Positions 9,746 to 32,243 of a stretch of 64,000 nucleotides of DNA are shown here, one piece after another (position 1 is the first letter of the stretch; each line of letters opens with the position of its first letter). The stretch covers positions 70,122,001 through 70,186,000 of the forward strand of contig OZ024740.1 of the NCBI GenBank assembly GCA_964016885.1, in the 5' to 3' direction. A program made the translations under genes and the position numbers. Below the pieces are notes generated by a model. The model did no database searches. It saw nothing but the letters and a program-made list of their open reading frames with translations, and was not told the DNA's origin. Source of the stretch: Eledone cirrhosa (Eukaryota).

Positions 9746-9935
9746 AAAGAGTCAAGACTCCGACGGCTGAGCTCCGGCCGTTTCGACAGCTAGATCCGAA
9801 CTGTCGAAATCGGCAAGAGCTCAGCCGTCGAAGTCCTGACTCTTTTCCTATTGACAACTCTACTTACTACCGTAAGTATCGAGTACTCTGGTGCGGTATG
9901 GTCCACCTGGTATCTTACCACACCTTCTTTGTTTT
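9746..9935 (+). mobile_element. Short non-autonomous hairpin + tail element (family also at 17747, 18779, 31587)
   Basis: Imperfect inverted repeat 9746-9846, then a ~90-nt tail whose AAGTATYGAGTACTCTGGTGCG..ATGGTCCA segment recurs at 18844-18890; flanked by microsatellites. Confidence 0.7.
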
Positions 9936-9945
9936 ATATATATAT

Positions 9946-10267
9946 AAGCAAAGAGTTATTTAATTTGTTGGTTATTCAACAAATTTATTTATAACAGATT
10001 CGAAACACTCTACAATATTCTTCTGGAGTATAATATCAATAATATTAATAAATGGAAACTATCTTTATAAAACCATATTTATTTTATTTTATTATATATA
10101 TTTCAAGGGTACCAACATTTTTTGGCACGCTCATCACTACCTATAAAACAACTTTTTTATTTTACCTGATGAGGGCGTACCAAAAAATGTCGGTACCCTT
10201 GAAATATATATAATAAAATAAATATGGTTTTATAAAGATAGTTTCCATTTATTAATATTATTGATAT
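9946..10267. mobile_element. Inverted PLE-type 3-prime end pair with HHR
   Basis: Arms ~10033-10138 and ~10166-10267 are reverse complements; an extra tail at 9946-10032 is on the left arm only. Confidence 0.75.
10158..10220 (+). ncRNA. Type I hammerhead ribozyme
   Basis: tattttac-CTGATGA-gggcgtacc..ggtaccctt-GAAA-tatata-TA-ataaaata. The mirror copy at ~10080-10138 reads GTGATGA and lacks stem I. Confidence 0.7.
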
Positions 10268-10559
10268 ATGTATATATATATATATATATATATACGTAAA
10301 TAAGATCGTTATTGCTCCATTTGTGAATGGAGAGCCATTCATATATGTATATACACGTGTGTGTGTGTGTGTGTGTGTGTGTTTCCTTTTGTGTCAGTTT
10401 TACGTCTTGAACCTAGTAGTTCAACAAAATGGAACTATAAAATATGTACCTGTCTTGAAAAATAAAGACTGTAGTCGATAATCGACTTTCTCCCTTCGCC
10501 TCTCTCCCAATTTGCTGCCCTTATCATTATGTTAGAATGAGTTATTATTGTTAGTAAGA

Positions 10560-10768
10560 GAAGTAGTAGTAACAGGTATAGTAGTAGTAGTAGTAGTAGT
10601 AGTAGTAGTAGTAGTAGTAGTAGTAGTAGTAGTAGTAGTAGTAGTAGTAGTAGTAGCGGCAGCAGCAGCAGCACCAGTAGTAGTAGTAGTAGTAGTAGTA
10701 GTAGTTGTTGTAGTAGCAGCAGTAGCTCTTACAGCAACAGCATCAGTAGCAGTAGTAGTAGTAGTAAT
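10560..10768. repeat. (TAG)n/(CAG)n trinucleotide microsatellite
   Basis: Direct reading; explains the poly-V and poly-L ORFs. Confidence 0.95.
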
Positions 10769-12385
10769 ACTTAGAATTTGACGTCAAAGTTTTGTAGTAA
10801 TAAAATGTCTTATAGACACGCAAACACAAAAATTCTCGTTTTTTTTTCCCCGTTTTATTTTCTATCTATTTGCAAATGACAAAGCCTCGATCCAATCCAA
10901 CTTTTTCTATAAACATAATATAATGTTAACCTAATTTCTTTCTATTCTCATCTACCGTTTTACATGAACGATTTCTTCGTTGCCACAATTGACATACTAC
11001 TCCATATTTCTTTTTCTCAACCTGCCTTCTTTGCTGGAAACTGTGAAGTTAATGTATTCTCTGTCCTATATACATCCTCTTGAGGGTTATCGTACCAAAT
11101 TGTCCACTTCGACTCACTACAAATCTCTGTCTTTTTTCACAACCCACATCTATTCTAAATCTTGTCTTTAACATATTTTTGATAGTTTGTTTCGTTTTTG
11201 CTTTTGTGCTGCCTTGCTTTGTGTTTTGCATTCTATGAATAATGTCATTTTGTTGTTGTGGTTACTCTCTCGCTTTTTATCTCATCTTCCTTCTCTCTCT
11301 CTCTCTCTCTCTCTCTCTCTCTCTCTCTCTCTCTCTCTCTCTCTCTCTCATATATTTATATATACACACACATATATATGTATACGTATATATATATATA
11401 TATACATATACATAGGTACATATATATATATATATATATATATACATATACATATATATATGATGGCTGCCCCCTCGCTATCGAGTATGGACATATATAT
11501 ATATACATATATATATATGTATATATATATATACATATACATATATATATACACATATATATGTATATATATATATACATATATATATGTGTATGTGTGT
11601 GTGTTTAGTTATTTCCCTCTCTCACTCCCCGTCTATCTGTTCTCCGCCATTTCCTCAGTCTTTGCCCTTCTCTTTTACATTCCATTTATCTCAACGCCCT
11701 TCTACGCCGATATATTATAGCGTATCTGATAGATGAAACAATGAGATAAGTACATGACCAGATGACCAGATACTTATATTAACCATAAAGTATTACCACG
11801 TGTATTTACACATGCACATACACATATGCATACGTATTTACGCATATATGCATGACATACACACGTGCACATGCGCTCCTACTGGCTCGCGCTTATGCGT
11901 GATCTGGTGGTAAGAGAGTTAGACTTACGATCATAATGTTATGGGTTCGATTCCTATAGTGAGGTATGTGTTGTGTTCTTGAGCAAAACAAGTCATTTAA
12001 TTTTGCTCCTCTATACTCTGCTGAAAATGAGTACCAGCATTAGCTGGGAGTTTAAACATACGATGGACTGTTGTCCTGTCCAGAGGAATGTCTTGAATTC
12101 TCAGTCGCTTCACACCACGGAAACCAGCGTAATGAGCCTCCGGATTCTAGAGAGACTTTAGACTTTTACTGTGTATATATATATATACATACATTTTGAT
12201 AGGCGGCATATTGACTGCGTCGTATCACTTTACGGTATCTGCATACATGCTACATACATTTCTGAAAAATATGTTTCAACATGTTAAAATACCCCCCCCC
12301 CATATATATATATATATATATATATATATATATATATATATATATATATATATATATATATGTGTGTGTGTGTGTGTGTGTGTGT

Positions 12386-29665: not shown

Positions 29666-31450
29666 AATAATTAATGTTTTCAAATCTGGTACTTATTTTA
29701 TCGGTCTCATTTTGGTCGCTCAGCTAATGGTACTCGACAAATTTAAACACGTACACAAACACATAGACCCCACCCCATATATATATATATATATATATAT
29801 GTGTGTGTGTGTGTGTGTGTGTGTGTGTGTGTGTGTGTGTGTGTAATTATATATAATACGTATATATGTATTTATATATAATACGTATATATGTGTATAT
29901 ATATATATATATATATATATATATATATATATATATATATATATATATATATATATACTACTGGTATCTGCAGTTTCCGTCTACCAAATTTTATTTGCTA
30001 GGTATTTATTTGTCAAACTAAAGCTATAGTCGAAGACGCTTGCCCAATGTGCCACATTTCGGAACTGAACCCACAACCACGTGTTTGCGAGCGATGTCTT
30101 TAACAACACAATACCTGAGCTTTTCATATACATTATATATTTTTGAATTTAAAATTTCCCGATGCTCCGTAACTCACCCAAGTCTTGTATATATTTTATG
30201 TATTTGTTCTGCTCTATACTATTTATATATATAATACCTTATATTGTTATAATCTATATTGGTATTGGTTTTATTTTCACATCGTATATTCCCATTGTAA
30301 TTCGTTATAACCCTCGACAGCTGCGGTAGCACTACAGGACAAAAACGAGCGCTAGTGCAGATCACGGTGGTAGTAGCATATGTTTGGCCTAAACTTAATG
30401 ACCTATATTCCGCAGTCCTTTCGGCCGAATGTACGTGTGGTTAAAAAAGACAGTGTATGTAAATACGTACATCTCTGTACGTGTGTGTGTGTTGATGAAT
30501 GCAAGTATGTATGCATGAGTGGACCACGGTAAGTGCGAGGGACTATGTGTATGTGTGTGTGTGTGTGTGTGTGTGTGTGTGTGTTTGTATGTGTGAATGG
30601 GGACGCACGTGTGAGAGTGCAGAAATCCCCTCAGTAGATATCAAATACATTCCCTGGCCTCTCCACTCATCTTTTCCTCCTCAGTTTTCTAATCATATCG
30701 CTCTTTCTTTTCTCCATTTTTTTTGCTGACTTTTTACCCCCCCCCCCCCATTTCTCTGTTCTTAGTGCCCACATCACTAAATATGTGTGATTATATCAGC
30801 GTGTCTATGTCTGTATGAGTGACAACGTTCTGCTACAGTTGTGTTCCATCTGTTTTTAGGCCTTTCCTCCCACTACAGATGTTTTTTCTATGCTCCTCCA
30901 CCAACTCTTCTCGGATCCCGGCCGTTCGGCTTTTCCCGATTGTCGGGCGTTATGAGAATCGCCATTTATATATATACACAGTAAATATATGTGTTTGAGG
31001 AGCCGGCGATACCCCGAAGAAACTTCTAAGTAACAAGCTACTCCATCAGCCTTCTTTAACTAATAAAGTCGGCAATAGCATTGATTACTCATTCTCACGT
31101 TTACTAATAATGTAAATACTATGAGCGACTGGGTATAAATATTATGAATGAATGGGTATAAATAGTATGAGCGAATATGTGTGCGAGTGTGTATGTGTGA
31201 TCGCGTGTGTATGTGTGTGTGTGCATTCCTGTAGCGGCTGCTGTCCAATTTTGTTCCGTCTATAGGGGTATTTTACTCGATTTTCTAAGCAATCAATTAT
31301 AACAATCTGCTTTGTTCCCAGTTATTTTCTGCCTTCAAGATTTTTTACGTGTACTAAGAATCTCTCCTACCTATCTTTCTTCTCCCAACCCGCTTTTCCA
31401 AACCTTCACACACTACTCATACATCTATCTGTTCTGTCCTTGTCCGGACT

Positions 31451-31484
31451 TTCCTGATGAAGGACTTCTGTCCGAAACGTTGAA
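31451..31484 (+). ncRNA. Minimal type I hammerhead ribozyme at a PLE-type 3-prime end
   Basis: ttc-CTGATGA-a-ggac ttct gtcc-GAAA-cg-TT-gaa; same layout as the Neptune HHR at 56439; ~90 nt upstream of (TA)n. Confidence 0.75.
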
Positions 31485-31586
31485 CCCACCTCCACTTGCT
31501 CCAAGCGTGAACCTAATATAACTGTGTATTTTTGCATTCCCTGTATTTGCTTTGTTTGGTTTCATTTATTAACTATATATATATAT

Positions 31587-31687
31587 ATAAGAAAATGTTC
31601 AAGACCCCGACGGTTATTTCTGGACGTCCAGAAATAGCCGTCGAAACGGCTTGAGCTCTGCTGTCGGGGTCTTGATCATTTTCCTAT
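31587..31687. mobile_element. Hairpin element (9746 family) in (TA)n
   Basis: GAAAATGTTCAAGACCCCGAC..GTCGGGGTCTTGATCATTTTC, with an inner palindrome CGACGGTTATTTCTGGACGTCCAGAAATAGCCGTCG. Confidence 0.65.
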
Positions 31688-31903
31688 ATATATATATATA
31701 TATATATATATATATATATATATATATGTACGTCAATACTCATCTTTTTCCATTTCTCCGAGGATTCTTAACCCTACTATCAGGCTAAATAATTTCTTTA
31801 ATTTCTTTAGTCAAAATACGGCGATAGCTTACATTTCTAATAATTTCAAACCCACTCGCTGTTTCGAAAATATTCATATATATATATATATATATATATA
31901 TAT

Positions 31904-32243
31904 AGTTAATAAATGAAACCAACAATTATTCTCGGTATGGTGAACTAACTGTTGTGTTACCACTTCTATATATATATATATATATATATATATATATATA
32001 TATATAGAGAGAGAGAGAGAGAGAGAGAGAGAGAGAGAGAGAAAGAGAGAGAGAGAGAGAGAGAGAGAAGTGCTACCACAACAGTTAGTTCCCCATACCG
32101 AGAATAATTGTTTCACCTTGGCGGTGAAGGTGAAACAATTGTTCCCGGTATGGTAAACTACCTGTTGTGTTACCACTTCTACTTAACTCGTCCCATGGAC
32201 TGAGTGCTCTACCACTACGGATACTACCTTCCAGTGTTCTACC
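31904..32243 (+). mobile_element. Hairpin + tail element with a third partial arm copy
   Basis: Arms ~32066-32120 and ~32127-32181, tail 32182-32243; additional arm copy at 31914-31968. Confidence 0.7.

Follow-up and report, generated by a model that had tools for sequence, protein, structure and literature searches.

A 64-kb stretch of the Eledone cirrhosa genome (3.0 Gb; assembly GCA_964016885.1, contig OZ024740.1, positions 70,122,001-70,186,000 of the forward strand), referred to below as the window, is dense in inverted repeats that are flanked by (TA)n and carry a tail at one end only. Several of these tails contain the same small bulged hairpin. The motif is genuine, and chance is excluded as its source. 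It is one of a pair of hairpins conserved in the leader of Penelope-like elements (PLEs) of the Hydra clade, ahead of the open reading frame (ORF), and each hairpin likely anchors the reverse transcriptase (RT) on the element RNA and sets an internal start site (probability roughly 0.7). A role in RT recognition is the best reading of the motif.

A bulged hairpin in the tails of Hydra-clade elements

An earlier inspection of the window, the original prediction, cited nine examples of the hairpin. All nine strings are present, each at its coordinates and on its strand; eight are genuine, while the ninth (10314-10335) is a look-alike. Families are named below by the window position of their hairpin, and other loci by L numbers.

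Tails were collected without regard to the motif from the window and from 100 stretches of 10 kb of the same genome, 1.064 Mb altogether. The 524 raw inverted-arm elements were reduced to 67 tails in 25 DNA clusters by filters on tail length (284 lost), simple tails (81), simple arms (54), mirrored elements (28), short arms (6) and duplicates (4). A strict descriptor, which required R-CTC and then a paired base, 5-40 nt, T-N and GAG-Y, with R and Y paired, recovered the motif from 28 of the 67 tails and 8 of the 25 clusters. In 300 dinucleotide shuffles the mean number of motif-bearing tails was 0.13 and the maximum 1, so the predicted excess over shuffled tails is borne out, and among arm segments of equal length the strict motif occurred in 1 of 67. 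The distance from GAGY to the end of the tail is 35-88 nt, with a median of 48. A stricter pattern gave 63 matches over the 1.064 Mb, 58 of them with a microsatellite 25-110 nt downstream, whereas 4 matches each came from the reversed sequence, from the complemented sequence and from a 5'-bulge control. Contrary to what had been implied, the motif is not common to all tails: its strict form is absent from 17 of the 25 clusters, including families tied to non-Hydra endonucleases.

The anatomy of the hairpin was read from an outside set of 78 Hydra loci on metagenome contigs, 57 of which have an ORF start and 34 a hammerhead core no more than 260 nt upstream. Anchoring on CTC and GAG-N-RC alone gave 76 sites in 45 clusters, 70 of them with a partner. 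The hairpin can be written RCTC-N..N'-TN-GAGY-RCY. The bulge had been described as 1-2 nt, usually on the 3' side; in the outside set it is fixed, being 2 nt long, on the 3' side and T-first at all 70 sites (TT 52, TA 9, TC 9). A 1-nt bulge is confined to the 32186 family, and the 15238 hairpin should be re-read as ACTC-T..A-TC-GAGT.

The first upper pair covaries, with repeated compensatory switches. It is C-G at 47 outside sites, T-A at 22 and A-G at 1, and is thus paired at 69 of 70; for hairpin 1, the T-A/C-G state changes 5 times, at least 4 of them forced, on a quickly built tree that kept 29 of 32 proteins, the other 3 having short ORFs. The claim that the upper stem always stays paired holds for this pair, but the second and third pairs are formed at 46 of 70 sites each (above permutation values of 29 and 27) and the fourth at 28 of 70, which is not above permutation. 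Very long upper stems are tolerated, with an inner part of up to ~65 nt (L189-L218; L015, L105, L257), so only the basal helix, the bulge and the first pair seem to matter. The basal stem is A-U in several E. cirrhosa families and is replaced by a compensated GTTC/GAAC in one ORF-less tandem unit. The bulged register comes from comparison and not from energy, since the minimum-energy folds of the nine sites give it for only some of them. A T/A-rich flank lies 5' of the outside hairpins. GAGY and its conserved flank often read GAGYRCTC, which is itself palindromic (e.g., window positions 9881-9888).

In the window, the long ORFs specify an RT joined to a GIY-YIG endonuclease at the C terminus; they have a CxCx5C linker and the CxxC/CxH motifs, and lack CCHH. 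The same linker, the CxxC and CxH motifs and the absence of CCHH are given as hallmarks of the Hydra clade in Craig et al. (2021, PMC8557442). Pfam had no match for 13 window ORFs, and their identity came from 1346 homologues, in which RWK and DKT motifs are present (seen in P0012, P0053 and P0109, and in ORF starts of the same genome at L025, L038 and L092); the window ORFs are truncated before this region. They are assigned to Hydra-clade PLEs with a C-terminal endonuclease by inspection of motifs rather than by a tree of named Hydra sequences. Insertions are of the Hydra type, with a (TA)n target, an inverted copy and a tail at one end. Putative hammerhead cores, called by pattern match alone, are found in window copies of four of the seven window families and in outside loci. 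The attribution of the tails to PLEs in the original prediction is supported.

Five of the seven motif-bearing window families (9857/18831, 10029, 15238, 19100 and 32186) run into Hydra ORFs. The 18304 and 12447 families have a hammerhead core and no secure ORF link; a candidate link for the former at L329 was rejected because the ORF can belong to a neighbouring copy of the 19100 family. The motif was found in 0 of 9, 0 of 8 and 0 of 3 tails of three families tied to CCHH-type endonucleases, and so is not a general signal of PLE tails. The families that had been called dissimilar are indeed diverged at the DNA level, but, given these links, they are members of one protein clade.

Twin hairpins in the leader and the ends of copies

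Grouping at 80% protein identity sorts the 34 leaders anchored by a hammerhead into 27 clusters, in which L122/L129 is a single family counted twice. Two hairpins are present in 23 clusters and one in the remaining 4, and none is without; the total of 50 compares with a mean of 0.53 and a maximum of 3 in shuffled leaders. The order is hammerhead (~-200), hairpin 1 (~-105), hairpin 2 (~-42) and ATG, with ~15-45 nt between hairpin 2 and the ATG in most leaders. The spacing of the hairpins varies by family, from 59 to 116 nt. The proteins behind these leaders have a median pairwise identity of 47%, and the spacers are unalignable.

In E. cirrhosa, read-through copies of the 15238, 19100, L025 and L092 families, and of a sister of the 10029 family, have hairpin 2 immediately beyond the point where the tail stops. 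Among the deposited consensi of PMC8557442 inspected by eye, Hydra-1_Ajap has both hairpins and Hydra-2_Ajap and Hydra-2_Amil have hairpin 1 only, while the Hydra-1_Amil consensus ends before the hairpin site. The hairpin that would set the tail end sits outside the tail and was invisible to the original prediction. The predicted cis-signal is conserved, but it is not a 3'-terminal stem-loop of the kind known from long interspersed nuclear elements (LINEs): it is internal, lies in the 5' leader and occurs twice.

Both hairpins are also present, together with a hammerhead core, in an ORF-less tandem unit of 527-528 nt (L076:6570-7900; also L017 and L022), one of them having the GTTC/GAAC stem. 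This unit is retrozyme-like, and its dispersed copies end ahead of either hairpin.

Copy ends were mapped on copies picked by arm DNA upstream of both sites, with offsets that include TA microhomology. As predicted, the motif is tied to the arm end: copies mostly end 2-9 nt upstream of hairpin 1 (the arm end) or of hairpin 2 (the tail end), at a T/A-rich patch able to pair with (TA)n. The L025 family ends at -1 to -8 of hairpin 1 or at -2/-3 of hairpin 2 in 33 of 35 matches, overlapping loci included, the other two being read-through. In the 15238 family (67 matches) the ends lie mostly at -9 or -4, ranging to -18 and -12. TA junctions of the 19100 family number 15 at hairpin 1, 10 at hairpin 2 and none elsewhere, and the 10029 family has 29 and 12 at the two hairpins. 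In the metagenome loci a first pass was dominated by divergence between families; repeated with exact probes, it gave 12 break points from other organisms, 5 of TA type at -3 to -8 and the rest without a clear TA or at the probe edge. Contigs from two runs of one sample, possibly the source itself, have TA loose ends at both sites.

The two arms of an inverted pair end differently. In pairs chosen by arm DNA only, 36 had mixed ends, one at each hairpin, none had like ends and 6 were unclassified; the 36 of 36 classified pairs compare with an expected 49% (P 7e-12). A count in the random sample gave 30 mixed and 1 alike, and is partly circular because the references were drawn from tailed elements. 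The arms of 116 pairs were near-symmetric in 94 cases; the untailed arm was longer in 10, the tailed arm in 9, and 3 could not be assigned. The one-sided tail of PLE copies is itself already known (PMC8557442).

Readings of the hairpin pair

In the proposed mechanism, the hairpin would form in the element RNA and the element protein would bind each of the two. Each hairpin, with one RT bound, would offer the U/A-rich bases immediately 5' of it to a nicked (TA)n end. Once the endonuclease had cut both strands of the (TA)n tract, a ribonucleoprotein with two RT active sites could prime from each DNA end at a different hairpin, one per active site, and the two cDNAs, joined head to head, would form the inverted repeat. 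The one-sided tail would reach from hairpin 1 to a point shortly ahead of hairpin 2, so that tail length would equal hairpin spacing. Hairpin 2 would be visible only in tandem read-through copies, because it is never copied from its own start.

The closest parallel is PAc, a Poseidon element of Anolis carolinensis, which cuts and extends both target strands (Frangieh et al. 2024, PMC11167929). The tail of PAc lies between two internal RT start sites, the surrounding RNA is required, and the enzyme is predicted to be a dimer (PMC11167929). PAc thus shares with the elements described here the paired internal starts around a tail, the use of both strands and an RNA stem-loop at the start. The available part of that study reports no conserved or duplicated motif, while the hairpin described here is duplicated, spans phyla, lies in a non-coding leader and is found downstream of each start.

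Several observations weigh against internal starts set by two RNA hairpins. Firstly, the PAc stem-loop differs, being a single AC-rich structure within the ORF that includes the start site. Secondly, hairpin 2 was not seen in the 9857/18831, 18304, 32186 and 12447 families, none of which yielded a read-through copy, and the Hydra-1_Obim and Hydra-1_Crog consensi, two of the six published novel ones, have only diverged versions (PMC8557442). Thirdly, end offsets are variable (2-12 nt) and blurred by TA microhomology, and the 10029 family has 21 further TA junctions 18-22 nt before a hairpin and 16 ends without TA, outliers that probably reflect subfamily divergence. Mixed ends are also usual in families without the motif (18 of 22), so that mixed pairing is not specific to it. 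Finally, pair counting on the covariance model alignment gives no covariation for the basal stem, which does not vary among the outside hairpins; G-U and A-C counts (8 and 6) do not tell RNA from DNA.

The same G-U and A-C counts are neutral towards recognition in DNA, in which a single cDNA would start at the tail end and fold back, and the endonuclease or RT would recognise hairpin 1 so as to halt or cut the second arm, which was the second option of the original prediction. The 94 of 116 pairs that are near-perfect palindromes fit fold-back synthesis as well as two starts, and endonuclease cleavage of plasmids required the tail of Drosophila virilis Penelope, according to PMC11167929. However, hairpin 2 lies outside every tailed copy and yet keeps the same offset from the tail end, which requires it to be read on the template. 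A simple fold-back also calls for a tailed arm no shorter than the untailed one; in the 10 pairs the untailed arm is longer, in four of them by 0.8-2.0 kb, which argues against fold-back as the sole route. A DNA-level signal is the best of the alternatives and is nevertheless unlikely.

The sharp copy ends could also arise if the hairpin directed cleavage of the RNA just upstream, by the RNA itself or by a host or element nuclease, followed by ordinary target-primed reverse transcription from the new 3' end; the ends of RNA-seq reads do coincide with PAc start sites (PMC11167929). This is improbable, since PAc starts internally whatever 3' sequence is added (PMC11167929), Rfam has no ribozyme match to the hairpin loci, and strict mixed pairing would require both sites on one complex.

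The position of hairpin 2, which ends ~15-45 nt before the ATG, and the T/A-rich 5' flank would suit hairpins that regulate ORF translation or hammerhead folding, with copy ends merely following nearby TA-rich patches. In Hydra elements, hammerhead stem III is often ACTC-N-GAGT (File S2 of PMC8557442). Yet the true hammerhead lies upstream, both hairpins are kept in the ORF-less tandem unit, and the ends track hairpins that are spaced 59-116 nt apart in different families, which leaves such a role with very little probability. The motif as stem III was rejected in its own right, as the GAA of the core does not precede the hairpin and a G often follows it. Chance, or recent common descent without function, is scarcely credible: the reservation in the original prediction that the tails might be one recently diverged family applies in so far as all linked families form one clade, but the shuffled and reversed controls, the 47% median protein identity with unalignable spacers and the recurring compensatory changes stand against it.

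RNA structures that recruit an RT and fix the start of copying are familiar from the 3' stem-loops of LINEs and short interspersed nuclear elements (SINEs), the R2 3' untranslated region, the telomerase template boundary and hepadnaviral epsilon, and twin priming by L1 yields inversions. These signals act once per RNA or sit at its 3' end or close to it, while the Hydra leader has two equivalent internal signals that correspond to the two fixed ends of insertions.

The elements themselves correspond to the Hydra PLEs of Craig et al. (PMC8557442) in their RT with a C-terminal GIY-YIG and no CCHH, in the CxCx5C, RWK and DKT motifs, in the canonical hammerhead, in (TA)n targets and in inverted copies tailed at one end. 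They differ in that the tail was attributed there to endonuclease resolution, and in size: tails here are ~60-95 nt and 3' regions reach 1.6 kb, compared with 30-40 bp. The main text of PMC8557442 contains neither "hairpin" nor "stem-loop", and coral and sea-cucumber consensi deposited with it carry the hairpin unremarked. At the gathering score, Rfam gave no family for 17 loci, the only hits being sub-threshold microRNA matches on TA repeats. No description of a duplicated hairpin signal was found in the searched literature, subscription papers and some supplements being outside that scope. Both the element class and internal initiation had been described before, and the duplicated conserved signal is apparently new within the literature searched.

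The integration route of PLEs and the cause of their inverted repeats with one-sided tails are regarded as an open question (PMC8557442, PMC11167929). It is conceivable that a two-headed PLE enzyme and a duplicated RNA anchor that spans phyla make programmed twin priming the normal integration route, accounting for both the inverted repeats and the tails; clade-specific tail hairpins might do the same job in other PLEs, and the motif would be a portable 20-nt signal that aims a telomerase-related RT internally. This broader proposal is tentative, at somewhat less than even odds. Two CCHH-type families (Neptune/Nematis-like) share another tail hairpin, ACTY-GTGT-NNN-ACAC-CTC, a few nt past the arm end (window positions 15374-15733, 38157-38450 and 22029-22248; L026 and L071), which is a possible clade-specific counterpart.

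PLEs are the closest retroelement relatives of telomerase, and the motif makes their integration testable by point mutation and by changes in spacing. If internal starts at the two hairpins are real, the hairpin would be an RNA determinant of an internally initiating RT. It could also serve as a marker of non-coding Hydra-dependent elements and of true element boundaries in invertebrate genomes.

Hairpins and other repeats of the window

A covariance model was built from 48 outside hairpins on a poor MAFFT alignment, and it models only the 4 basal pairs. It recovered four of the nine cited sites at E <1, missing 15238, 19100, 10029, 32186 and 10314.

The hairpin 1 at 9857-9884 (+; E 0.77) belongs to a short inverted Hydra-PLE stump with arms at 9747-9845 and a tail to 9934, followed by (TA)n. 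Members of this family (9747-9845, 17753-17864 and 31600-31685) are mostly ~190-200 nt long, with ~60-nt arms and a centre in the hammerhead region, which is thus a favoured point of fold-back; the family adjoins Hydra ORF ends at L100 and L238. In the same DNA family, hairpin 1 at 18831-18854 (+; E 0.005) has a tail to 18902, and none of its copies listed is a read-through. The best model match (E 0.0008) is the G-C-based hairpin 1 at 12427-12447 (-) in the element 12387-12745, which has a hammerhead core at 12663-12700 (+); a second copy of this family carries a degenerate hairpin 1 at 43119-43160 (-) and a core at 43196-43233 (-). Hairpin 1 at 18304-18322 (+; E 0.29) has its tail end at ~18366, with the family's hammerhead core at 18104-18126 (-).

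Hairpin 1 at 10007-10029 (-) lies in the element 9948-10264, whose other arm holds a hammerhead core at 10166-10204 (+); the family is tied to Hydra ORFs, and hairpin 2 appears in read-through copies of its sister subfamily. Hairpin 1 at 15238-15256 (+) lies in the element 12828-15313, and in the family's read-through copies at L294 and L295 a Hydra ORF comes after hairpin 2, which sits at the tail end. The element 19041-21392 carries hairpin 1 at 19076-19100 (-), a Hydra ORF remnant at 19828-20031 (+) and a hammerhead core at 21295-21341 (+); its tail is shorter than is usual for the family, whose read-through copies have hairpin 2 and an ATG. A relative of this family at 40724-43000 (-) comprises a Hydra ORF remnant, a 3' region and a hammerhead core at 40783-40829, and its 3' region and core end at the arm-end site. 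The variant hairpin 1 with the 1-nt bulge, at 32186-32205 (+), follows arms at 32069-32180 and has a tail to 32242; its family sits after Hydra ORF ends at L012 and L027.

The look-alike at 10314-10335 (+) was rejected as a member. A different short repeat has its 5' end here, a truncated start with a local inversion; the bulge of the look-alike is GA instead of TN, and it folds differently. Its 17-nt lead-in has 11 other copies in the genome, and in none of them does a GAGC partner follow.

Further instances had been overlooked. One at 18477-18514 (-; E 0.17) lies ~90 nt before a (TA)n run. Another, at 17523-17563 (+), is within a TA-flanked unit of 645 nt (16988-17632), which has 35-nt direct terminal repeats and is related to 57202-57388. 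A third, at 56661-56700 (-), has a sister copy at 57455-57494 (-).

A 5'-truncated Hydra-clade ORF with RT and GIY-YIG domains occupies 46933-48912 (-), with an inverted partner at 48892-50322 (+). The region 43286-54090 is a nested inverted structure of ~10.8 kb with two near-identical truncated Hydra ORFs and a long low-complexity 3' region. A tandem and inverted multi-copy array (38487-40673) has units of 470-800 nt at 99% identity, and a remnant of a CCHH-type PLE endonuclease of another clade lies at 54600-54990. Two dispersed families of short repeats, which we take to be SINE-like, occur at 9588-9704, 11907-12010, 22283-22455, 24909-25389, 27673-27843, 29469-29664 and 32627-32822. A tandem satellite with a 37-nt unit occupies 63250-63989.

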